Assembly (NCBI GenBank): GCA_963781885.1 | Contig: CAWAHW010000005.1 | Location: forward strand, 160,001 to 224,000 | Reading direction: 5' to 3' | Length of the DNA: 64,000 nt | Source: an uncultured Spirochaetota bacterium | GTDB lineage: Bacteria > Spirochaetota > Spirochaetia > SZUA-6 > Fen-1364 | Shown here: positions 23,154 to 34,776 of the stretch, in pieces | How positions within the stretch are numbered: the first letter of the stretch is position 1 | How the letters are laid out: each line of letters opens with the position of its first letter | Notes under the pieces: model-generated | The model's input: the letters and a program-made list of their open reading frames with translations, nothing else | Database searches by the model: none | What the model was told of the DNA's origin: nothing | Translations under genes and position numbers: made by a program

Positions 23154-23936
23154 TCACTCCTGCAGGAGCCATCGATAGTCCGAGGGGAAGTACTTGTCCT
23201 TCGACTTCTCCTTCTTCACGGCGAGCTCCCCGAGACTGATCTGCATGTCCTCGACGAGCCAGAGCCTTCCCACCGGCGCGAGATAGATCTCCCCTTCGGT
23301 GGAGCTTTGTTCCGCGAACAGCCTGAGCGGGGCCGTGACCTCTCCATCGTCCCGGCGCGTGGGTGCGCCGAGCCGGAACGATTTCGGTGTGTTGCCGTTC
23401 GCCATCTCGTACTTCAGACTCTCCACGAGCGCCGCCTGTGAATCCGGGACGATGAGCTTCGCATCCACGTTGCCCGCAACCAGCGCGGCGAGGAAAATCC
23501 CTGCCGCTGCCATGGCGGCGCTCTGGTCCGCCGCCCCGGTGCGGTCGTCACCGAGCAGGCCGATCTTGAAATCCTCCGGCAGGATGCGCGTGGAGCGGCC
23601 CAGCGCCATGAGGGAGGCCGCATCTGAGAAAGCGCTTGGCTTCGACGGCTCGCCCGTCGGTTTCTGCGGGTTGAGCACGATCGCACTTGACGGCTTCTGC
23701 CCGGGAGACGCGGCGGGGGCCGCGGGAGCCGCGGCAGCGGTCGAGGCGCCGGCCGGTGATGCTGTGCCGGCTGTTCGCGGTGCCACCGGAGTCGTCACGG
23801 CTGCCGACGCTCCGCCCGCCGCCGCGGCGTTCGCGGTCCCCGGCTGTCGGGGACTTCGCTGGCACGCTGCCATCGACAGGGAAACCACCAGGGCGGTGGC
23901 GAGCAACAGCCGTCGCGTCACAGTTTTTTGTATCAT
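23154..23936 (-). CDS. Hypothetical lipoprotein
   Basis: Lipobox MAAC, A/P/T-rich linker, small globular C-terminus. Confidence 0.7.
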   Translation of the reverse strand: MIQKTVTRRLLLATALVVSLSMAACQRSPRQPGTANAAAAGGASAAVTTPVAPRTAGTASPAGASTAAAAPAAPAASPGQKPSSAIVLNPQKPTGEPSKPSAFSDAASLMALGRSTRILPEDFKIGLLGDDRTGAADQSAAMAAAGIFLAALVAGNVDAKLIVPDSQAALVESLKYEMANGNTPKSFRLGAPTRRDDGEVTAPLRLFAEQSSTEGEIYLAPVGRLWLVEDMQISLGELAVKKEKSKDKYFPSDYRWLLQE

Positions 23937-24026
23937 GGAACGTGCTTTTCCGTCTACGCCGGCGTCGTCCTGCGGGCGATCGGGACAGCTTTACAGAGCA
24001 CCCGCATCGTCATACTGTGGACGGGC

Positions 24027-25316
24027 ATGGGCGAAACCGAGCGTATTCTCGCACATCTGGAAAACGACTACACCGAGCCGATCCGCGACCCCATCTGGAA
24101 GCACATCTACGTGTCCCGCCCCCTGCTTGCGATCATCGAGCAGGAGCAATTCCAGAAGCTGGACCGGATCCGGCAGCTCGGTCCCGCGGCGCTCGTCTAC
24201 CCGGGCGCGACCCATACGCGGCGCAGCCACAGCCTCGGCGTGCTTCACCTGGCCCGGCGTCTCATCACGACGCTCGTGCGGAAAAACCACGATGTCGACA
24301 TCAGCATGGAAGGGGTGAAGGCTTTCCTCTGCGCGGCCCTTCTCCACGACATCGGTCACTACCCATTCGCCCATTCGCTGAAGGACCTCGACGTGGAGGC
24401 GCACGAGGCGATTGCGGCGCGGCAGATCCTGTCGGATTTCGCCCCCGCGATACGCGCGCACCTCGGCATCGAGCCGGAGGCGGTCGCCGCGATCATCGAC
24501 AAGGGAACGCGCTACACGGGCAGCGTGAATGTCGGCTTTTTCTGGAAGATACTCTCCGGCGTGCTGGATCCAGACAAGCTCGACTATCTCAATCGCGATG
24601 CGTTCTACTGCGGCGTGCCCTATGGCATCCAGGACGTCGATTTCATCCTGGAGGAGGTCTACCCCCATGCGGGCAAAGGCGTGGCGATAAGCCCCAAGGG
24701 AATCACCGCGTTGGAGAACATCCTCTTCTCGAAATACCTCATGTACAAGACGGTGTATTGGCACAAGACCGTGCGCATCGCCACCGCCATGATCAAGAAG
24801 GCCATCGCCCTTGCGCTCGCGGACAGCGCGATCGGTCGACCTGACCTCTATGGTCTGGACGACGAGCAGTTCTCCCAGCGCTTCGATGCGAAGCGTTTCT
24901 CCGGCTTCCAGCTCATCGAGGACACCCGCCGCAGGATGCTGCACAAGCAGGTGATGCACATCCCGTTCGCGGAGGACTCCGCCCTGCATCGCGGGCTGGA
25001 GAAGATCGAGACGCGGCTCGAGCTGGAACGACAGATCGCGCAGGAAGCGGCGGACGCGCTGGGGCGCGAGGTGCGGCCGGAGCATGTCATCGTCGATGTG
25101 CCCGAGCGTCTCTCCTTCGAGATCGACATCCCCGTCATCGATCCGCGCCAGGCGGAGCCGGAAGAGGGGGACGCCGGGGATTCCTCCTACGTCTTCAACT
25201 GGATGGGGCACCGGGATTTTCCACAGTCCCTGCGCTCCATTTCCGTGTGCGCGCGCGCCGATGCCGACCTGCTCGCCGTCCTGTCCCGCATGAATCTGCC
25301 CCGGCGCTTCGGCTGA
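24027..25316 (+). CDS. HD-domain phosphohydrolase (SAMHD1/dNTPase-like)
   Basis: IRDPIW, RIRQLG, YPGATHTRRSHSLG, ALLHDIGHYPFAH, DPDKLDYL, VYWHK. Confidence 0.9.
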   Translation: MGETERILAHLENDYTEPIRDPIWKHIYVSRPLLAIIEQEQFQKLDRIRQLGPAALVYPGATHTRRSHSLGVLHLARRLITTLVRKNHDVDISMEGVKAFLCAALLHDIGHYPFAHSLKDLDVEAHEAIAARQILSDFAPAIRAHLGIEPEAVAAIIDKGTRYTGSVNVGFFWKILSGVLDPDKLDYLNRDAFYCGVPYGIQDVDFILEEVYPHAGKGVAISPKGITALENILFSKYLMYKTVYWHKTVRIATAMIKKAIALALADSAIGRPDLYGLDDEQFSQRFDAKRFSGFQLIEDTRRRMLHKQVMHIPFAEDSALHRGLEKIETRLELERQIAQEAADALGREVRPEHVIVDVPERLSFEIDIPVIDPRQAEPEEGDAGDSSYVFNWMGHRDFPQSLRSISVCARADADLLAVLSRMNLPRRFG

Positions 25317-26119
25317 TGAGGGAATTGTCGGCCGCGGATGCGCAGCTTCTGGAGCGCTTCGCCCACCACGTCGGAAGGGGAATCAGCAGGTTCTCCATGA
25401 TACGCCCCGGCGACCGCGTGCTCATCGGGGTCTCCGGCGGCAAGGATTCCCTTGCGCTCAGCCTCGCGCTTGTCGTGCGGAAGAAATGGGTGCCCATCGA
25501 CTACGAGCTTTGCGCCGTCCAGGTGGAATGGCGGGAGTACCCGATGAGCGCGGAGGAGAAGGCGGGAATCGACGCATTCTACGAAGAGCTGGGCATTCCC
25601 TTCTCCCGGGTGCAGGCGCAGATCGCCCCGGCATCGTTCACGAAGAAGTTCAGCTGCTATACGTGCTCGCGCAACCGCAAGAGGATCCTTTTCGACGAGG
25701 CGGCGCGCCGGGGCGCGGGGCGCATCGCCCTTGCCCATCACATGGACGACATCGCCCAGACCACGCTCCTCAACATGTTCTTCCACGGCGAGTTTTCCAC
25801 GATGATGCCCGTGCAGGAGTTTTTCGGAGGCTCACTGGCCGTCATCCGGCCGCTCTGCGAGGTGCGGGAGGCGGAGGTGGCGCGTCTTGCCGCCCGTCTT
25901 TCGCTGCCCACCGCGCCCAATCGATGCCCCAACGCCCACACGAACAGGCGCACGCTGATGAAGGAGATCCTGCGCACGGCGACCCATGCCAACAGGAATG
26001 CCGTGTCAAACGTGTATTCGTCGCCGTGGCGGATCAATCGCGACTACCTTCCTTCGGCGCCCGCGGATGCCGGTAACGACGGGGAAAGCGACGACGCCTT
26101 GCCGGAGGACTGGCTCTGA
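25316..26119 (+). CDS. ttcA: tRNA 2-thiocytidine biosynthesis protein TtcA
   Basis: PP-loop SGGKDS, CYTCSRNR, HHMDD, IRPL, CP; TGATG coupling. Confidence 0.85.
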   Translation: MRELSAADAQLLERFAHHVGRGISRFSMIRPGDRVLIGVSGGKDSLALSLALVVRKKWVPIDYELCAVQVEWREYPMSAEEKAGIDAFYEELGIPFSRVQAQIAPASFTKKFSCYTCSRNRKRILFDEAARRGAGRIALAHHMDDIAQTTLLNMFFHGEFSTMMPVQEFFGGSLAVIRPLCEVREAEVARLAARLSLPTAPNRCPNAHTNRRTLMKEILRTATHANRNAVSNVYSSPWRINRDYLPSAPADAGNDGESDDALPEDWL

Positions 26120-26138
26120 CGTAGAATCCCGGTGACTC

Positions 26139-26888
26139 ATGCGATGTGCGATCATCAGTGACATACACGCCAACGGGGAAGCGTTGGCGGCGGTGCTTGC
26201 GGAAATTGACACCCTCGACGTGGAGGCCGTCTATTGCCTCGGCGACCTTGTCGGGTACAACGCCGACCCGGACTTCTGCGTGCGGACGGTGCTTTCCCGG
26301 TGCGATGCGACGATACGCGGCAATCACGACAAGGCAGTGGCGGGTCTTCTGACGCTGGAATGGTTCAACGGCAACGCGCGGGATGCCGCGCTCTGGACCC
26401 GCGGCGCCGTCTCGGAAGACACAATGGCTGCCCTGCGCGCGCTCGTCCAGGGACCGAAGCAGCCGGCGTCGGGCATCCTGCTCTGCCACGGCACGCCGTA
26501 CGACGAGGATGAGTACCTTCTGGACCGGCAGACGATGGAACTGAGCATGCAATGCGTCGAAAAAGACTGGCCGGAAACAAGCTTTTGCTTCCACGGGCAC
26601 ACCCATTCCCCGCTCATTGCGTCCAGAAAAAGGGGCGAATCGCGCATCCGCGTCCACACGTGGCAGGAGACGACCCGCCTGGAGGCGCATTCGGTTTATC
26701 TCATCAACCCCGGTTCCGTGGGCCAGCCGAGGGATGGAATAGCCATGGCATCTTTTGGTATATTAGATAGCGGCAAAATGCTCTACACGAACCGGCGCGT
26801 GGCCTATGATATACCCGCTACCCAGGAGAAGATCGTGAGGGCAGGGCTGCCCCCCGTGCTTGCGCGACGTCTTGCCGAAGGGCGATAG
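26139..26888 (+). CDS. Calcineurin-like metallophosphoesterase
   Basis: SDIHAN, GDLVGY, RGNHD, HG, GHTH, NPGSVGQPRDG. Confidence 0.9.
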   Translation: MRCAIISDIHANGEALAAVLAEIDTLDVEAVYCLGDLVGYNADPDFCVRTVLSRCDATIRGNHDKAVAGLLTLEWFNGNARDAALWTRGAVSEDTMAALRALVQGPKQPASGILLCHGTPYDEDEYLLDRQTMELSMQCVEKDWPETSFCFHGHTHSPLIASRKRGESRIRVHTWQETTRLEAHSVYLINPGSVGQPRDGIAMASFGILDSGKMLYTNRRVAYDIPATQEKIVRAGLPPVLARRLAEGR

Positions 26889-26901
26889 GAGAGGAGAGGG
26901 G

Positions 26902-27345
26902 ATGAAATCTCAGCTCATGGAGGAAAGGATCCGCCGCGTGTCGGTGCTCTTTTCCGAGCTTAGCTTCCGTGTGGTCGAGGATGAACGGTCTCACAACGCC
27001 TATTCGGCGACCTTCGAGGACGACGATGCGTTTCAGGCCGGCGTGCTCATCGAACGGGGGAGCAGGTTCCTGGAGCTGGCGTATGCCCTCACGTTTCCGC
27101 CCACGTTTTCCCAGCTCATGAAGGGCAAGCTGGAAGAGATGCTGAAGATCTGCTACGAGTTCGGCTGCTATATAAGCCTCCAGCAGACGGCATCGGAGAT
27201 AAACTATTCCGTGTTCACCAAAATCTATTACTCGGGCTTGAACTACTATTCGCTTCGGGACAGCCTCCGCGATTTCCGCGAATGCGTCGCCGCCCTGATG
27301 GATCTCCTGGAGCTGGGCAAGGAAGCAAGCGAAAGCTCGCTGTAG
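26902..27345 (+). CDS. Hypothetical protein (possible YbjN/T3SS-chaperone-like fold)
   Basis: Strong SD GGAGAGG, 147 aa, typical codon bias; the fold is a guess from the alpha/beta pattern. Confidence 0.65.
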   Translation: MKSQLMEERIRRVSVLFSELSFRVVEDERSHNAYSATFEDDDAFQAGVLIERGSRFLELAYALTFPPTFSQLMKGKLEEMLKICYEFGCYISLQQTASEINYSVFTKIYYSGLNYYSLRDSLRDFRECVAALMDLLELGKEASESSL

Positions 27346-27418
27346 CTCGCCGCGGGGTTTTTCCGTCGCCGCAGCCTCCCGGGCCGACACGACAGGGCGA
27401 CGCCCGCCGCTCATCGAT

Positions 27419-27706
27419 TCAATAGCTTTCCGAAAAGACCTCTGTTTCCTGGAGCACGCCTTCGCAGTTCTTCTCCACGAACGCAAGCGCCTTCTGCATG
27501 ACCGACTCGCCGAACGCGCGGGAGTTGGACACGATTGCCGCGCCCAGCTGGGCGTGCGAAAGTGAATCCTGGAGATCCACCTCCGCGACGGACATGTGGA
27601 ACTTGTTCGCGAGCTTCTCCTTGAGCGACACGACGATCCGTCTCTTGTCCTTGATGGATTCCACCGGGGGCAGGGCGATGCGGAACTGGATCATGGAGAC
27701 GACCAT
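27419..27706 (-). CDS. DUF503 (YlxP-like) protein
   Basis: SIKDKRRIV.SLKEKL.NKFHMSVAEVDLQD...LGAAIVSN. Confidence 0.85.
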   Translation of the reverse strand: MVVSMIQFRIALPPVESIKDKRRIVVSLKEKLANKFHMSVAEVDLQDSLSHAQLGAAIVSNSRAFGESVMQKALAFVEKNCEGVLQETEVFSESY

Positions 27707-27715
27707 CCCGAGAGT

Positions 27716-28831
27716 CTACTCGTCCTTGAGGAGATCCGCCAGATTGTCGATCGTCGGGACCGGCGATTCCGCCTCCGCGCTCTGCCGGTCCTTCAGCGGG
27801 AGGTAGACACCGTTGTAGAGCGCGGCAAGCTCGAACACGTCGTCCTGCTCGCTGCCCTCCGGGATGCGCACCTCGAGGTTGTAGCCCGGCTCCGACAGGC
27901 CGCGCTTCATCACGTGGATGGGGTCGGAGATGCCCAGCGCGAAGCGAGGCGCGTAGAGGAAGAGGAATCCCAGGACGGCGAGCACGACCGCGATGAAGAA
28001 GACCATGCCCTCGCGGGACGATGTGGCGCCCAGCGGCCTCTGGTCCACGTACACCCCAACGCCGTCCACGTTCACGTAGTCGTAGTCGCCGGCCATGAAG
28101 TGCGTGTCGTAATACGCGGGCGCATAGCGGGTCCAGGCGGTGTTTCCGCCCGGCGCGCGCACGACGAGGAGGGACGCGTCCAGCGCCGCGGCTGCCGCGG
28201 CCCGGTCGGCGAGCCCCACGCTTCCACCGGCGGCAAGGGCGCGCGCGCGGGCCATCTGGCCGTCCGTATATGGCGTTTCGAGCCCCGGGAGGACGCCCGT
28301 GCTTTCCAGCACCGATGCCCCGATCAGCCAGAAGACGAGGAGAGAGACCGCGATGGTCGTGATGGTGGAGAGATGGCGCTGGGCCATGGGCGAGCTCACG
28401 TAGCGGATGCCGCGGAAGAGCTTGATGACCCGCAGGAGCCGCAGGATGCGCGCGATCCGTATCGCCTTGATCACCTTCAGCGTGTTCAGGAAGCTCCCGG
28501 CTCCCGCAAAGAGCCCCACGCCCGCCATCAACGCCAGCACGTGCGGGAAGGAGCTCAGGAGGAGCAGCGGAATGGAGGCGAGAAAGTCGACCCATCCGCG
28601 CTGGTGAAAGAGGTAGTTTCGCGCCTCCCCATTCGTGAGGGCCACGTAGAGGCGCACGAGGAACTCCACCGTGAAGAAGAGGTCGAAGCCGAGCCCTGCC
28701 CAGATGATCGCGCTCCGGGCTGCCACCGTCCAGCCGGCGACGCTCGCCAGGTCCTCGATGAAGGTGTGGATGAGCGCGCCGACGATGACGACGACGACGA
28801 CAGTTTCAAGGATCTCTGCCAATTTGCGCAT
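27716..28831 (-). CDS. Ion_trans-like voltage-sensor domain protein with extracytoplasmic domain and HAMP-like tail; no pore motif seen
   Basis: S2 FDLFFTVEFLVR, S3 WVDFLASIP, S4 KVIKAIRIARILRLLRVIKLFR; then TM-loop-TM and ISDPIHVM..DDVFELAALYN. Confidence 0.75.
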   Translation of the reverse strand: MRKLAEILETVVVVVIVGALIHTFIEDLASVAGWTVAARSAIIWAGLGFDLFFTVEFLVRLYVALTNGEARNYLFHQRGWVDFLASIPLLLLSSFPHVLALMAGVGLFAGAGSFLNTLKVIKAIRIARILRLLRVIKLFRGIRYVSSPMAQRHLSTITTIAVSLLVFWLIGASVLESTGVLPGLETPYTDGQMARARALAAGGSVGLADRAAAAAALDASLLVVRAPGGNTAWTRYAPAYYDTHFMAGDYDYVNVDGVGVYVDQRPLGATSSREGMVFFIAVVLAVLGFLFLYAPRFALGISDPIHVMKRGLSEPGYNLEVRIPEGSEQDDVFELAALYNGVYLPLKDRQSAEAESPVPTIDNLADLLKDE

Positions 28832-28840
28832 CAGCGGCTC

Positions 28841-29794
28841 CTACCAGCCATTCTCAGAGGCGATGGTGTACAGCTCGTCGAGCATCCCGGCGTCCAGGCC
28901 GTGCCAGCGCGCGTTCTTTCGATTCACGTTGAACCAGCTCTTGTCGGGCGAATCGGCGCCGCGATCGACCACAAGCCCCGGCGCGAGGGTGCGCCCGCGC
29001 AGCGCGAGGATCGCCGAAAGACGCGCCACGGCTTCCACGTTCGGCGTGAGGGGGAAGGCGAGCGTCCCGCGAAGCCCCATGCCGATGACGGAAGAGGGGA
29101 GGGAAGGCACGAGGGCGGCGATGTTGGGGAGGATCTTCTGGAGATACGATTCCTGCAGCGGCGCGAAGCCTGCATCCTTCTCCACCCGCTCCCCGGCGGT
29201 GATGAAAAGGTACGCGGAGGGCCGAAGCACGAGCAGCACGCGCGTGAGGTCGACGACCGCCGCCGGGACCAGATTCAACCGCTGGACGCGCGTGATTTCC
29301 ACATAGGTGTATTTCTTTCTCTCCCACGCCTGCGGGATATACTTGTCAGCGAGATCGGCGCGCGCCGCGGACACCGATCCGGCGAGGGCCCCCCGGGCAA
29401 TGGGGTGTGCCGCGGCCCGCTGGAGCAGGGCCCTCAGCTCCGTGCGGATGTTCGGCGGCACCTGCCGTCCGCCGGCCATGACCGGGAAGAAGGAGAAGCC
29501 GAGGCGCGTGGAGGCCAGCTCATCGAGGTCCGCCGCAAGCCCCCTGTCGGAGACGGCCTTTATCGCGCGTGCGACAAGGGCGGCCGGCTTCTGCCAGCCC
29601 TGGCTCACGTCGAGGCCCAGGGAGCCGAATATCGAGAGAAGCTGCGGACCGTTGGCGCGCAGGAACTGCAGCGCCTGCTCCTCTTTCTGCAGGGCAGGGA
29701 GCTGGCGCAGCGCCGGCGTATCGAGCATGCGGGAGGCGAATCGTGCGATCGAATCGGGAGATGCTTCCACTTCTCTTATTTTCGGCCCGGGCAT
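28841..29794 (-). CDS. Hypothetical protein
   Basis: 317-aa ORF with typical codon bias, co-oriented 10 bp upstream of the voltage-sensor gene. Confidence 0.7.
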   Translation of the reverse strand: MPGPKIREVEASPDSIARFASRMLDTPALRQLPALQKEEQALQFLRANGPQLLSIFGSLGLDVSQGWQKPAALVARAIKAVSDRGLAADLDELASTRLGFSFFPVMAGGRQVPPNIRTELRALLQRAAAHPIARGALAGSVSAARADLADKYIPQAWERKKYTYVEITRVQRLNLVPAAVVDLTRVLLVLRPSAYLFITAGERVEKDAGFAPLQESYLQKILPNIAALVPSLPSSVIGMGLRGTLAFPLTPNVEAVARLSAILALRGRTLAPGLVVDRGADSPDKSWFNVNRKNARWHGLDAGMLDELYTIASENGW

Positions 29795-29835
29795 TCATTT
29801 ACATGAACCGCGCTTCCATTGAATAATGGCCCCAG

Positions 29836-32800
29836 ATGGCACGGACGCGCGCTTGCATCACAGTGCTGTGCATCGCCCTGCTTCTTCTGGCGGTCGTGCG
29901 CGTCTCCGCGGACGGCGTGTTCGTGCCTGCCGCCGAGGCTCCCACGACCATTTTTGCCACGAAGCTTGGAAGCGCAGATGTCGACCTGAGCCTCCTGGGC
30001 TCGTGGACGGCGGGCATATCATTTGGAACGGGATTTCTCTATGCCCCCGGCCAGACCCAACCCCTCCAGGCGCTGGACGGGTTCCCGGGCCTGACGCTGG
30101 GATTTCTCTTCAGCCAGACGCCGGATATCACCGCCAGCCTGAACTTGCTCAAGAGATTCTTTCTCGATGCCACGCTGATTGGAAGCTTCGACAACAACGC
30201 TCTGCAGATGGGCTATCGGGGAGCGCCGGGAGAGGTGCTGCAGTCGGTGATCCTGGGAACGCAGGGCATCACGATAAGTCCCAGCGCCTTCCTTCAGATT
30301 CCGGACCAGCCCAAAGGCTCCCTGGGCGCCTCCGCGGAGCTCACCTCGGGCTCTTCAACGAACGACCTGCTCCTGCGTTGGGACCCGACCACGCAAAAAC
30401 AAAAGACTTTCATCGGGAAAAACGAGCTCACCGAGCAGGAGGTGGGCATCGATGCCTACACCCGCGGGATGTATTTTTTCCTCCCCGACACGGGCCTGGA
30501 TGCCAACACGCTCACGGTCCTGATCGAGGATCCCGCGGGCACCGTGACGGGCTCCGACCAGCGGAAGTATCGAACCGCAACCTATACCGACGTCGTCCTG
30601 GACTCCGTGCAGGGGTTGGTGTCGCTGCGCAACGCGCTGAAAGGCAGAGTGCTCGTCTTCTATAGGAAGAACGGTTTCAGCGTCGGGGATCCGGCAATCG
30701 GCCGCGGCGGGCTTCCCGGCACGACCGGGGGCGGGCTCATTCGTGACCCGACCGCGTCGGTGAATTTCGATTTCACCGTGAACCCGTATCTCGGCCAGAA
30801 CATGGCAAATCGGGAGGTGAGCGTGCCGGGCGTCGGCAATTGCCTTCTCCTCTGGCAGCCGGGCGACAACTCGCCGTTCGAGATGGACAACTCCTACGCC
30901 TTTTCCGCGACCCCGCCCACGGACGTATCGAAGATTTCCTTCCAATTCAATCTGAAGGACACGACGGCCGTTGCACCGGCGAAAATCATCTTCCAGAGCA
31001 TTCCCGCGGAGAAGCGATTCCTTGCGCTGCAGAATGCGAATCTCCGCGCCACGTATGAAAACTTTTACCCCTTCTCCCAATACGTCGATGCCAACGGCCA
31101 GAGTCACAGCGCGGACCCGCTTGGCCTCCTCTACGGTCCGCAGCACGACTCCCTGGCCGGCACGCTGGACTTCGACCTTCTCGTCCAGTTCCTGACCCCG
31201 ATCACCGACTACACCCTGGAGGCCAACATCGAGCCCGGCTCCGTGCAGGTCACGGTGAACGGTGTGGCGGAAGACCGTTTCGAGGTCGACGCGGCGTCGG
31301 GCAAGCTCACCCTCGACGTGCCCATACTCCCGACGGACCGCATCGAAGTGACCTACCGCATCGCCGAGCAGGGAAGCACGGGTGGCGACATCCTTTTCGC
31401 GTGGAAGGACAAGATACCGCTTGCAGACTGGGCGACGCTCACGCTTTCAGCCGGGCTGCGATGGAATGCCAATCCCTGGACCTTTTCACAGGAGCCCTAT
31501 TCCAAGTCGGGCACGGTCATTGCCGCGGTGGGCATAGACGGTGCATCGGGCCCGATTTCCTACTCCGCGCAGGCGGGCGTCGCCTACACGAACCCTGATA
31601 CAACGGGCACGCTGCGCCTCTTCGGCATGGAGGGCAGCTCCACCAGCATCGACATCTCGGAGGAGCTCGATTATCCCGCCAGTGCGCCCGCGTCAGCCAG
31701 CGGACTCCTCTTCACCTCAACCCAGGCCAACCGGGGGGAGCTGCTTTATCGGGACTATCGGGTCTATGGTGCTCTGGGAGCAGCAACCCTGCAGCCCATC
31801 GATGGGTCTGCGGCTCCCAACCCGCCGCCGGATCCCAAGCCATACGCGAACGGCTCGCGCATGGGGCCTTATAATGTGGCAGGCAACGCGACAAGCAAAA
31901 ATGCAACCAATCTTGTGCTCGAATATAGCCTGTCGGCCAACACCTGGGCTGGGACGCAAATACCTGTTTCAGCCGGAAGCGACGTGGATCTTTCCAGCGC
32001 GCGGGCGATCTCCGTGCGCCTGCGCGGCATCAACCAGACCGGGACGGTGACGGCGTATCTCCAGATCGGGAGCATCTCAGAAGACCTCGACGGCCAGGCA
32101 GCCGCCACGGCGACGCCAAAAAGTGAAGGATCGGCCGCGGATGCAGGGTTCGATTTCGTGGATGCCGCGAACGGTGTTACATTGAAGGTGGGCGCGAAAT
32201 ATGACCAGAACGGGAGCCTGGTAGGAAACGGGGTCCTCGACACGGAGGACCGCAATGCCAACGGCATCCTGGACCTCGAGGATTCCAGCCGCGTCGTGAC
32301 CCTGACGCTTCCGTCGTTGACGTCAGGTGCGGATTGGACGGCCGCGACATTTGCGCTTACCGACGATGAAAGGCAGGCGCTTGTTGCCGCGCGCTCGGTG
32401 CGCATCATCATCATGTCGACGGGCCAGGCCTCAGGCGACATCATCCTCGATTCCATCTCCGTGGAGGCAACGCCATTCTGGCCCGAGGCATCGACTCCCG
32501 ATCGTCCCCATATTTCCGTCCGGCAGATTCCCGAGTACCTGTCGGCGAACGACCCCGGATCCGGCCACCGCCTGGAGGACGCCTTCTCCGCAACGTACAA
32601 GCTTTTCCACCCCAACGGCGAGCAGAACGAGGTGCTGGAAACGGGATGGGGAGTGGACGGGACGCCGATAACCAGCGCGTTTTCGATCAAGGGATTCGTG
32701 CCGCAGGGCACGGGGGGCATACAGTACCAGACATTCGTGACTTATTTCCGCACCCCGACGTTGGGCGTGCAGTACACATTCTCCTTTGCCGATTCCACCG

Positions 32801-34776
32801 CGAATGTCGCAGAGCCGCGCATCAAATGGCATTACACGCCCACGAGCACGGGCTGGCACGAGCTGAAGGTCACATCGTTGAACGGCGGCCAGGTCCTTGT
32901 CGACGGGACGCCAATCGGCACGTGGGATAAGTTCGATTCGGGCTACGGGAGCCTCTCCTTCCTGCAGATCGACGTTCCGGCAGGGGTGCCGACAGGTTTC
33001 TTCTATCTGGATGAGGTTTACTGCACGGATCCCGCCGCTGACTTCGGCGCGGCATTCGTAGGAACCTTTTCCGCAAAGCTGCCGGGAACCATACTGGGAA
33101 TCGGCAGCGTGCCGATCCTGGCAAATGTCGCCTTCCGCCAGGACGTGTCGCTTGCCACGGCGGGCTTCTCCTCGCTCTATGGCATTCCCTTGCAGACATC
33201 CGACGTCTCGTCCCGAACGCACGTGGACGCGGATATCGCGACGGCCCGGACGAGCATCGACCTGCTCGTGCAGGACGAGGGAGGCACGCCATCGATCTCC
33301 GGCGGCCACCGCGTCACCCTCCCTTCATTCGGTCTGCCGGTCTCCCTCACCGATGCCTTTTCCCTCACCGACATCGGCGATTTCTCCCGGGAGGATTCGC
33401 TCGCGCTCACCGGTGGCTCCCTTCTGGGGCTCACGGTCGACGCAAGCGCGAACGCGGCAACGGGGAACACGGCCAATTTCGGGCTCCTCACGCAGACATG
33501 GCAGGGAGGGCTCACGTTCAATCCATTTTCCCCGCTGACGACCACGACGCAGCTCTCCCTTTCACAGGTGGTGGACGGCTATCCCTATCCCGTCATTCCC
33601 GAGTGGTACGGCGAGCGCTGGGTGCGGGAAGCGTCGCTCCTTCTGCCCTGGGAGGAGGGGAGCGATATTACCCGGACGGAAAAGCTGTCGTTCACCGCCG
33701 GGATGCCGGCCGCGCCGCTGGGCTTCAGCTTCGCGGCGTCGGCGGATGCGAATGGCAGCGACTATGCCCCCGCGGGCTTCACCCAGCAGAATGATCTTTC
33801 CGCCGCCCTTTCCCTTCTCCTGAACCTGGGACCCCAGTCCTCCTCGGACAGCTTCAGCATCACCTACAAGCGCGTCCTGAGCCTCGATACGACGCCTGCC
33901 CTGGGTCCCCGGTTCCAGGCGGAAACCGACGAGCTGGCCCGCATCCTCGGGCTGCAGGACTTTTTCGTGCAGGCCATCCCCATTGCCGAGATATTCACGG
34001 ACATCACGCCCCAGGCGCGCATTGCGTGGGCGACGGTGAGCCAGGGAAGCTACTCGCCGTCGCTCGCCTTCAACCTGCAACGCAGCTACGGCTCGCGCCT
34101 CATCGACCTGATCGTGCCGTCGAGCCTCGAGCTGGACATCGGCCAGGAGCTCGACAAGGCCGCCGACCTGTACCAGACCGTCGCATATATCCGGCCGCGC
34201 ATGACGACGCGCGCCGTGAATCTCTTCGGCGCGCTGGGCGCATACCCGCTCCTCACGGCGGTCCGCACCGACGAATACGACCTGGATCTCAGCGGGTCGC
34301 TGGAAGGGCCGCCCGGCGCCACGCCGGTCCTGGCAACCATCTCCGTCGAGGGATATGCGACGCTCACCGGCGCCGGGGACAACGCGCTCACGCTCCTGGA
34401 AACCTTTCGACGCGACCAGCCGACAGTTCCGCCGCTCGGTGTGACGCTCACGAACGACTCACAGGCGATCCTGGACTGGAAGCTCCTGCCGCAGAAAGGC
34501 ATCCCCCTGCCGCTCATCCCGCCGGACATCGCCGCAACGGGGCACTTCGAGAACCGCGAGAGCGCCGATCTCACCATTTCATGGCAGGAGTCGGGCGCCT
34601 TTCACCCCTTCACGGTGCTTTTCGGGCATGCGACGTCGCTCGTGTATGCCGGCCACGGATCGATTAAGGCCAGCGCGAATCTCGGCGTGGACGTCGAAAA
34701 CCCCGCGGTGACGGGCCAGGGGCTGGTCTGGCGTTTTGCCGTCAGCGCCGCGCTGGAGGCAAAGTTGACATTCTGA
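29836..34776 (+). CDS. Very large exported, probably outer-membrane, protein with SprA-like motifs
   Basis: Signal peptide (..VSA/DG), beta-rich 1646 aa, C-terminal beta-signal ..LEAKLTF; motifs IEPGSVQVTVNG..FEVDAASGKL and DTEDRNANGILD. Confidence 0.75.
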   Translation: MARTRACITVLCIALLLLAVVRVSADGVFVPAAEAPTTIFATKLGSADVDLSLLGSWTAGISFGTGFLYAPGQTQPLQALDGFPGLTLGFLFSQTPDITASLNLLKRFFLDATLIGSFDNNALQMGYRGAPGEVLQSVILGTQGITISPSAFLQIPDQPKGSLGASAELTSGSSTNDLLLRWDPTTQKQKTFIGKNELTEQEVGIDAYTRGMYFFLPDTGLDANTLTVLIEDPAGTVTGSDQRKYRTATYTDVVLDSVQGLVSLRNALKGRVLVFYRKNGFSVGDPAIGRGGLPGTTGGGLIRDPTASVNFDFTVNPYLGQNMANREVSVPGVGNCLLLWQPGDNSPFEMDNSYAFSATPPTDVSKISFQFNLKDTTAVAPAKIIFQSIPAEKRFLALQNANLRATYENFYPFSQYVDANGQSHSADPLGLLYGPQHDSLAGTLDFDLLVQFLTPITDYTLEANIEPGSVQVTVNGVAEDRFEVDAASGKLTLDVPILPTDRIEVTYRIAEQGSTGGDILFAWKDKIPLADWATLTLSAGLRWNANPWTFSQEPYSKSGTVIAAVGIDGASGPISYSAQAGVAYTNPDTTGTLRLFGMEGSSTSIDISEELDYPASAPASASGLLFTSTQANRGELLYRDYRVYGALGAATLQPIDGSAAPNPPPDPKPYANGSRMGPYNVAGNATSKNATNLVLEYSLSANTWAGTQIPVSAGSDVDLSSARAISVRLRGINQTGTVTAYLQIGSISEDLDGQAAATATPKSEGSAADAGFDFVDAANGVTLKVGAKYDQNGSLVGNGVLDTEDRNANGILDLEDSSRVVTLTLPSLTSGADWTAATFALTDDERQALVAARSVRIIIMSTGQASGDIILDSISVEATPFWPEASTPDRPHISVRQIPEYLSANDPGSGHRLEDAFSATYKLFHPNGEQNEVLETGWGVDGTPITSAFSIKGFVPQGTGGIQYQTFVTYFRTPTLGVQYTFSFADSTANVAEPRIKWHYTPTSTGWHELKVTSLNGGQVLVDGTPIGTWDKFDSGYGSLSFLQIDVPAGVPTGFFYLDEVYCTDPAADFGAAFVGTFSAKLPGTILGIGSVPILANVAFRQDVSLATAGFSSLYGIPLQTSDVSSRTHVDADIATARTSIDLLVQDEGGTPSISGGHRVTLPSFGLPVSLTDAFSLTDIGDFSREDSLALTGGSLLGLTVDASANAATGNTANFGLLTQTWQGGLTFNPFSPLTTTTQLSLSQVVDGYPYPVIPEWYGERWVREASLLLPWEEGSDITRTEKLSFTAGMPAAPLGFSFAASADANGSDYAPAGFTQQNDLSAALSLLLNLGPQSSSDSFSITYKRVLSLDTTPALGPRFQAETDELARILGLQDFFVQAIPIAEIFTDITPQARIAWATVSQGSYSPSLAFNLQRSYGSRLIDLIVPSSLELDIGQELDKAADLYQTVAYIRPRMTTRAVNLFGALGAYPLLTAVRTDEYDLDLSGSLEGPPGATPVLATISVEGYATLTGAGDNALTLLETFRRDQPTVPPLGVTLTNDSQAILDWKLLPQKGIPLPLIPPDIAATGHFENRESADLTISWQESGAFHPFTVLFGHATSLVYAGHGSIKASANLGVDVENPAVTGQGLVWRFAVSAALEAKLTF

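Follow-up and report, generated by a model that had tools for sequence, protein, structure and literature searches.

The window analysed here is a 64,000-nucleotide stretch of an uncultured Spirochaetota bacterium (assembly GCA_963781885.1, contig CAWAHW010000005.1, positions 160,001 to 224,000). It contains, on its minus strand, a gene for a 371-residue membrane protein, which is called the sensor below. As judged from sequence comparison and structure prediction, the sensor joins a voltage sensor without a pore to the general layout of a bacterial transmembrane receptor. It is composed of a four-helix voltage-sensor domain (VSD), two further transmembrane helices (TM5 and TM6) with a periplasmic domain between them, a HAMP-like hairpin, and a short C-terminal tail. 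We estimate a probability of roughly 55% that the protein senses the membrane potential, with or without periplasmic input, and signals through a 317-residue protein (hyp317) encoded directly upstream. The features of the locus are listed with nucleotide positions in the window, residue numbers of the sensor, and the basis of each assignment in brackets.

27716..28831, minus strand: whole sensor gene, an open reading frame (ORF) of 371 amino acids with an ATG start, plus stop.
28409..28828, minus strand: VSD with helices S1–S4, residues 2–141 (Ion_trans; Ci-VSP match; conservation).
Within 28409..28828, minus strand: S1, residues 2–32; S2, 36–66; S3, 79–103; S4, 114–141 (AlphaFold2 model).
28409..28492, minus strand: S4 helix with lysine or arginine at every third residue, 119–140 (conservation in 81 rows).
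28298..28408, minus strand: S4-TM5 linker with invariant S147, Q151 and H153, then TM5, residues 148–178 (alignment, AlphaFold2 model).
28040..28297, minus strand: periplasmic α/β domain, extracytoplasmic PAS/Cache (PDC)-like, residues 179–264 (own fold, structure matches).
27932..28039, minus strand: TM6, residues 265–300 (AlphaFold2 model).
27785..27931, minus strand: HAMP-like helix-connector-helix, residues 301–349, ending in LPLKDR (AlphaFold2 model, hhalign).
27719..27784, minus strand: C-terminal tail, residues 350–371, a variable acidic linker and a conserved end motif of the L.IDD...L type (alignment).
28841..29794, minus strand: hyp317, 317-residue cytoplasmic protein, candidate output partner (no family assignment; gene pairing; complex prediction).
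27419..27706, minus strand: DUF503 (YlxP-like) gene, last in the operon (Pfam, 91.4 bits).

The sensor gene encodes a true and complete S1–S4 VSD with an intact charge-transfer centre of phenylalanine, glutamate and aspartate. Conservation was counted over 81 aligned rows, which comprise the sensor of the window and its relatives from 80 public spirochaete loci, with identities down to about 42%. The S4 helix (KVIKAIRIARILRLLRVIKLFR, residues 119–140) carries lysine or arginine at positions 119, 122, 125, 128, 131, 134, 137 and 140, eight in all. K119, K122, R125, R128, R131 and R134 are kept in every row, K137 in 80 of the 81, and position 140 is arginine or lysine in 68. In the Kv and Nav sensors, the S2 motif F-x-x-E-x-x-x-R and an aspartate of S3 form the charge-transfer centre. 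The corresponding stretches of the sensor are FFTVEFLVR (residues 52–60) and WVDF (residues 80–83); F53 is shared by all rows but one (80 of 81), and E56, R60 and the S3 residue D82 by all of them. D27 of S1 is present in 80 of the 80 rows that have a residue there, and D50 of S2 in 80 of 81. The linker residues S147, Q151 and H153 are found in 81 of 81 rows each.

The Pfam family Ion_trans (PF00520) matches the sensor with an expectation value (E) of 4e-11; the score is 43 bits and the cut-off 25. All 28 family members that were compared match it too. The match spans residues 8–174, which correspond to positions 4–146 of the 241 in the profile and cover S1 to the start of S5 only. A search of PDB sequences with the whole sensor returned only S4-type matches, at E of at least 0.17. 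The AlphaFold2 model of the whole sensor was calculated from a 28-row alignment and has a mean predicted local distance difference test (pLDDT) value of 73.9 and a predicted template modelling score (pTM) of 0.64. Its best structural match among 48,161 PDB representatives is the VSD of Ci-VSP (4g7v_S, Z 13.1, root-mean-square deviation (rmsd) 3.1, 124 of 136 residues aligned), followed by the sensors of Nav, Kv and Cav channels at Z 10–11.4. The 513 best chains of Foldseek give the same picture, with 98–161 residues aligned among the 50 best rows and none of these alignments extending into the pore domain. A preliminary description of this DNA had named a canonical S1–S4 with countercharges and an S4 of eight lysines and arginines; the strings that it quoted are present, and the Ion_trans and Ci-VSP matches confirm the domain.

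A VSD may itself conduct, and the sensor could be a voltage-gated proton or cation leak of the Hv1 or gating-pore kind, regulated by its receptor module and partner. A pore-less conducting VSD protein is known in Hv1. In S1 of the sensor, the acidic residues E9 and D27 are invariant, and position 22 holds a polar histidine or glutamine. Hv1 is marked by an S4 motif RxWRxxR, an S1 selectivity aspartate, and a coiled coil that follows S4 directly at the C-terminus. The sensor, however, lacks the RxWRxxR motif, and its S4 continues into TM5. Its unbroken ladder of six to eight S4 charges and full charge-transfer centre are as in non-conducting sensors, and the conserved cytoplasmic hairpin and partner gene suit signalling better. 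We regard conduction through the VSD as very unlikely. The eukaryotic VSD-only proteins Hv1 and TMEM266 resemble the sensor in having a VSD without a pore domain. Both are dimeric. They differ from the sensor in that their coiled coil comes just after S4 and that they have no TM5 or TM6, outside domain, or HAMP-like part. Hv1 conducts protons through its VSD, whereas for the sensor such conduction is hypothetical.

The sensor has no pore, as neither the pore helix nor the selectivity filter of six-TM channels is present. The segment between TM5 and TM6 is a loop of about 86 residues without a GYG string; the only similar string in the sensor, PGYNLEV, is located in the cytoplasmic part. Folded alone from a 54-row alignment, the insert reached a pLDDT of 89.5 and a pTM of 0.79, and the elements of its model come in the order helix-helix-strand-strand-helix-strand-strand. 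Some forms found in a scan of 401 Spirochaetota genomes match the sensor profile at about positions 1–175 and 262–372, with nothing between. Two such short forms, at L113:2050-2922 (plus strand, 290 residues) and L110:4132-5028 (minus strand, 298 residues), have no periplasmic domain, and about 10 residues join their TM5 to TM6. A pore helix and filter cannot fit into the short forms because this join is so short. The preliminary description had found no pore loop and had proposed that a pore helix modelled in the insert would speak against its view. No pore appears in the model of the loop, and the end of the Ion_trans match, the α/β fold of the insert, and the join in the short forms agree on the absence of a pore loop.

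It is also conceivable that the protein is an unconventional voltage-gated channel, its pore lined by TM5 and TM6 from several subunits and lacking a classical pore loop (P-loop). Databases label such proteins as 'ion transporter', the six-TM layout and the conserved S4-TM5 linker resemble those of six-TM channels, and the Ion_trans match of one relative, P0190, reaches profile position 221 of 241. The match of the sensor, in contrast, ends at position 146, the filter motif is absent, and the place of the pore is taken by a folded α/β domain or, in the short forms, by the join of about 10 residues. Among the 50 best rows, the longest structural alignment covers 161 residues and none enters a pore domain, and the HAMP-like segment would suggest a dimer rather than a tetramer. 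We consider such a channel highly improbable.

According to the models, the periplasmic insert is a small extracytoplasmic PAS/Cache-like sensor domain in most lineages. An exhaustive VIA-align comparison placed WalK first (4ywz_A, Z 6.8, rmsd 2.9, 87 residues aligned). Extracytoplasmic sensor domains from histidine kinases and chemoreceptors make up the greater part of the 50 best matches, at Z 4.4–6.8; PctD, McpU, TlpC, PfeS, CitA, CusS, and LapD are among them. Foldseek found nothing at E of 0.001 or below for the whole sensor model or the isolated periplasmic domain; its first, non-significant match for the whole model is a WalK model with the order TM, sensor, TM, HAMP (E 0.36). A Pfam scan of the sensor gave no Cache match. 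Domains of the PAS/Cache type open with a long helix, continue as an antiparallel sheet interspersed with helices, and stand between two TM helices. Because the Z values are modest, we term the insert PAS/Cache-like and not a member of the family. The soluble loop of 'about 100 aa' that had been noted between the two helices is close to the length described and resembles a receptor-type sensor domain in its fold and structure matches.

This domain could be the actual input of the protein, a receptor for a periplasmic ligand in which the VSD serves as an anchor or as a potential-dependent modulator of gain. The confident fold, the resemblance to ligand-binding sensor domains, and the TM-sensor-TM-HAMP layout typical of chemical receptors are in line with this possibility. 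The domain also has conserved residues of its own, as Y241, Y250, D263, and R265 are invariant in the alignment of the sensor family. The short forms do without the domain but nevertheless retain the VSD, the HAMP-like hairpin, and the gene of the partner. No positions of the protein are more strictly kept than the S4 charges and the charge-transfer centre, for which an anchor alone would have no need, and the structure matches are modest, with Z of at most 6.8. We therefore consider a ligand receptor of this kind unlikely.

The sensor ends shortly after the hairpin. A word-index protein search identified 400 relatives at E of 0.001 or below; the 120 listed are 274–404 residues long, mostly 371–400. 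For most of these 120, PF00520 is the single Pfam family, five have none recorded, and their source labels read 'ion transporter' or 'hypothetical protein' of Spirochaetia. Exhaustive HMMER searching of 1.84 billion representatives yielded 281 clusters at E of 0.001 or below, 216 at 1e-10, and 130 at 1e-30; the longest protein among the 150 clusters listed has 509 residues. The 10 longest relatives have no additional Pfam domain, and no fused or longer form above 650 residues was found, which in itself is weak evidence. Pfam and NCBIfam scans of the sensor detected no PTEN-like phosphatase. None of the homologues found carries an enzyme domain at its C-terminus, so the sensor copy is, by comparison with its relatives, not truncated. 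The preliminary description had seen no output domain in the sensor and had named homologues with an enzyme domain as evidence against its view; no output domain in cis occurs in the homologues found.

The segment after TM6 is HAMP-like by its position, secondary structure, and profile register, a weak assignment that draws on sequence and models. The segment SDPIHVMKRGL...DDVFELAALYN comprises residues 302–340, and the tail runs to residue 371. The hairpin follows TM6 directly and is formed by helices 304–313 and 331–354; the block has pLDDT values of 61–71 in the AlphaFold2 model, and tail residues 355–371 are below 50. The LPLKDR motif is near-invariant, with L344 in 79, P345 in 78, K347 in 79, D348 in 65, and R349 in 76 of the 81 rows. 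A PF00672 search of the source genome matched 29 other places, the sensor gene not being among them, and 28 of the 29 matches were used to build a HAMP comparison profile. The C-terminal family profile was aligned to it by hhalign over 45 columns in the canonical register (E 3.8e-4, probability 36%), with D-P matched to R-P, G-Y-N-L to G-D-L, and DDVF-x-LA-x-x-YN to DEIG-x-LA-x-x-FN. When the whole 384-column family profile is used, the best single match again falls on this stretch with an unchanged register (E 2.3e-3, probability 12%), and a control profile of hyp317 gave E 0.34 over 10 columns. HAMP domains are parallel four-helix bundles of homodimers and require a dimer. One distant relative scores 18.5 bits against the Pfam HAMP profile, under the cut-off of 25. 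Because the segment lies under this threshold, we call it HAMP-like and not a HAMP member. The HAMP assignment of the preliminary description is supported in part, by place, shape, and, at low hhalign probability, profile register, and not by the Pfam cut-off or the length of the first helix.

By genomic context and complex prediction, the protein hyp317 is probably the output partner of the sensor, with which it forms a near-obligate gene pair. It is encoded upstream of the sensor in 78 of the 80 public loci, and in the other two (L040 and L067) the sensor match lies at most 145 bases from the start of the locus. Counted at E of 1e-10 or below for the sensor and of 1e-5 or below for hyp317, the 401 Spirochaetota genomes contain the sensor in 84 cases, hyp317 in 68, and both in 63. 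In 61 of the 63 genomes with both genes, the two share contig and strand and hyp317 comes immediately upstream; its match ends between −50 and 700 bases ahead of the sensor match, in most cases fewer than 100. The hyp317 family comprises 123 proteins at E of 0.001 or below, all from Spirochaetota-type sources and all unnamed or 'hypothetical'. Its most conserved block is the C-terminal VDRGAD..SW...R.N....D...LDE. The residues D277, G279, S286, W287, R292, and N294 of hyp317 are invariant.

The pairing extends to distant relatives. Hyp317 is directly upstream of the sensor in the short-form loci, and the two genes overlap in L113. A degenerate sensor and hyp317 pair of overlapping genes is located at L119:3203-5106 (minus strand) in a small genome of 33% G+C. 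Its 348-residue sensor relative has lost most S4 charges and is aligned to the family by hhalign over 338 columns (probability 98%, E 2.5e-13). The hyp317 relative, which overlaps it, has 287 residues. The L119 pair is convergent to an ORF for a CheY-like response regulator (L119:2227-2667, plus strand), and proteins identical to those of L119 are labelled 'hypothetical protein' of Borrelia sp. in the protein collection.

A predicted complex of the sensor and hyp317 was graded by the tool as 'weak support', with a score of 0.60 compared to 0.01 for the best of three controls. At least 59% of contacts agree between runs, and the pLDDT of the partner is at least 78. The mark applied to this score is reached by 58 of 80 solved complexes and by 2 of 110 mismatched pairs; only 7 of the 80 solved complexes, together with both passing mismatches, have a score of 0.60 or less. 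The complex score and the genomic prior raise the odds of binding between the sensor and hyp317 moderately. Adjacency in 61 of 63 genomes and the predicted complex make the neighbouring 317-residue protein, already named as a possible partner in the preliminary description, a strong candidate.

We hypothesize that a change in membrane potential moves S4, and that the S4-TM5 linker, with S147, Q151, and H153, relays this movement to the TM5/TM6 hairpin. The hairpin would then drive the HAMP-like segment, as TM2 drives HAMP in histidine kinases and chemoreceptors. Where it is present, the periplasmic domain may supply or modulate a chemical input. Hyp317 would read the state of the HAMP-like helices, of LPLKDR, and of the acidic C-terminal end motif, and would thus be the real output of the system, an effector in trans.

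Several results weigh against a voltage sensor that signals in this way. The Pfam HAMP profile has no match in the sensor at E of 1 or below, with its cut-off at 25 bits, and it scores just one of 28 family members, at E 0.066. An HMMER profile of the C-terminal 95 residues finds no HAMP protein in PDB sequences, only chance matches to a seed protein and β-galactosidase at E of at least 0.19. The hhalign probabilities for HAMP are only 12–36%, and the first helix of the hairpin is, by our own count, about 2 residues shorter than usual. Hyp317 has no recognisable fold or family: it has no Pfam or NCBIfam match, its best PDB sequence match is at E 0.24, and the ESM Atlas gave no usable match for it, and scores below the bar together with a poor model for its relative P0383. 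The three complex runs scored 0.60, 0.01, and 0.60, and by the statement of the tool such a pass is 'more often wrong than right' except for a pairing that was already probable. No hyp317 is seen in 21 of the 84 genomes that have the sensor, and most of these 21 hold a paralogue with other neighbours. The neighbourhood is itself syntenic in the 80 loci, with a 1646-residue ORF (big1646) in 71, a 161-residue ORF (hyp161) in 70, and an HD protein in 68. Close relatives alone prove little on the pairing because the whole neighbourhood is syntenic and the gene order is partly inherited; it is the deep cases, the short forms and L119, that carry the pairing argument.

The paralogous subfamily has proteins of 352–367 residues with the same architecture (L116:3939-4997 on the plus strand, L117, L118, L120, and L121). 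They stop just past a WLPVKGR motif and have no hyp317 nearby. In three of the five loci, a protein of about 420 residues with TM and coiled-coil segments and a polysaccharide-deacetylase-like motif (NHTWSH) is encoded downstream. Four of the five (L116, L117, L118, and L121) have a small upstream ORF. The one in L116, the only one read and partly masked, contains a caspase-like DSCNSG motif.

The genes of hyp317, the sensor, and DUF503 are on the same strand with gaps of 9 bases each and by this layout form a compact three-gene operon. A promoter and terminator scan of 27200–30000 found nothing on the minus strand. The last ORF of the operon, of 95 residues, is a member of PF04456, with 91.4 bits against a cut-off of 22.4, and a DUF503 gene is located downstream of the sensor in 76 of the 80 public loci. 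DUF503 had also been suggested as a possible partner. It is a single-copy gene in the source genome, its family occurs in 4 of 14 control genomes (in which the sensor was not searched for), and no copy was detected next to the sensor gene in six examined loci that hold short forms or partial matches. We reject it as a specific partner on these grounds; it is probably linked to the sensor by gene order only. In the short forms, a radical-SAM hemW-like gene takes the place of DUF503 downstream of the sensor.

The sensor combines parts of several known systems. In Ci-VSP and TPTE of eukaryotes, a pore-less four-helix VSD controls a cytoplasmic effector, as is proposed for the sensor, and the VSD of Ci-VSP is the best structural match of the sensor. 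Their phosphatase, however, is in cis right after S4, whereas in the sensor S4 is followed by TM5, the periplasmic domain, TM6, and the HAMP-like hairpin. The presumed effector is a separate, bacterial protein. By analogy, the overall logic would be that of a voltage-sensing phosphatase whose effector acts in trans and is reached through a receptor-type coupler. In its second half, the sensor resembles WalK, CitA, and receptors of the PctD and TlpC type, which have the layout TM-PAS/Cache-TM-HAMP. Those receptors continue into a kinase, methyl-accepting chemotaxis protein (MCP), or cyclase module and are not known to start with a VSD, whereas the sensor stops about 20 residues after its hairpin, and its HAMP-like part lies under the Pfam threshold. 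KvAP and NavAb/NaChBac share the VSD family (Ion_trans) and the charge-transfer residues of S2 and S3 with the sensor. They differ from it in the P-loop, selectivity filter, and tetrameric assembly, which are absent or unsupported in the sensor. Bacterial receptors of the Aer and Tsr type report the energetic state of the cell through a HAMP domain, as the sensor might do through its HAMP-like part. Redox state or proton-motive force is detected by them in an indirect way, with a PAS domain that binds flavin adenine dinucleotide or by unknown means and without a charged S4, and they signal through an MCP module in cis.

To our knowledge, VSDs that control outputs other than a pore are limited to a handful of eukaryotic proteins, and bacterial VSDs have been described essentially only in channels. 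Full-text literature searches found no description of the sensor family. In its accessible part, a 2024 review of voltage sensors names only channels for bacteria. New here are the conserved pairing with hyp317 and their predicted contact, the forms without the periplasmic domain, the degenerate copy of L119, the paralogue, and the case against DUF503. If the favoured reading is right, a bacterial phylum has joined a textbook S4 sensor to the signalling parts of a receptor and to a cytoplasmic partner of its own. The sensor would be a direct and testable candidate for the reading by a bacterium of its own membrane potential. As a small two-gene system that is easy to express, it could reveal how S4 movement can drive a HAMP-like switch. 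Hyp317 is without a recognised family or fold, and its activity is itself a target for discovery.

The sensor also offers a starting point for the long-standing question whether electrical signals act in the motility of spirochaetes. Spirochaeta aurantia was reportedly studied in the 1980s in work that argued for a part of the membrane potential in chemosensory signalling. A long thin cell must coordinate the flagellar motors at both of its ends faster than diffusion allows. S4-type sensors at each pole could turn an electrical signal into a biochemical one, and the sensor is spread across free-living Spirochaetota, with the degenerate copy of L119 located beside the cheY-like gene. We speculate that the sensor and hyp317 might be the missing voltage-reading step of spirochaete behaviour, which we consider quite unlikely.

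The operon is divergent from the 1646-residue ORF and convergent with the 161-residue ORF. The former (29836-34776, plus strand) has an N-terminal signal-like segment and occupies the same place in 71 of the 80 loci. The latter (26860-27345, plus strand) belongs to no Pfam family and is the most conserved gene of the neighbourhood, with 87–94% identity where the sensor has only 58–65%. Three ORFs in a row at 23928-26888 (plus strand) adjoin the operon in many loci. The first is HD-domain-like, has 462 residues, and overlaps the second by 70 bases. The second, of 290 residues, is PP-loop/TilS-like, a name read from the sequence. The third encodes a metallophosphoesterase of 249 residues (Pfam Metallophos_2, E 4.7e-19). 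The 29 HAMP-profile (PF00672) matches of the source genome, which has 4.64 Mb in 7 contigs, are in proteins of 369–1630 residues. The genome is therefore rich in conventional receptors besides the atypical sensor.

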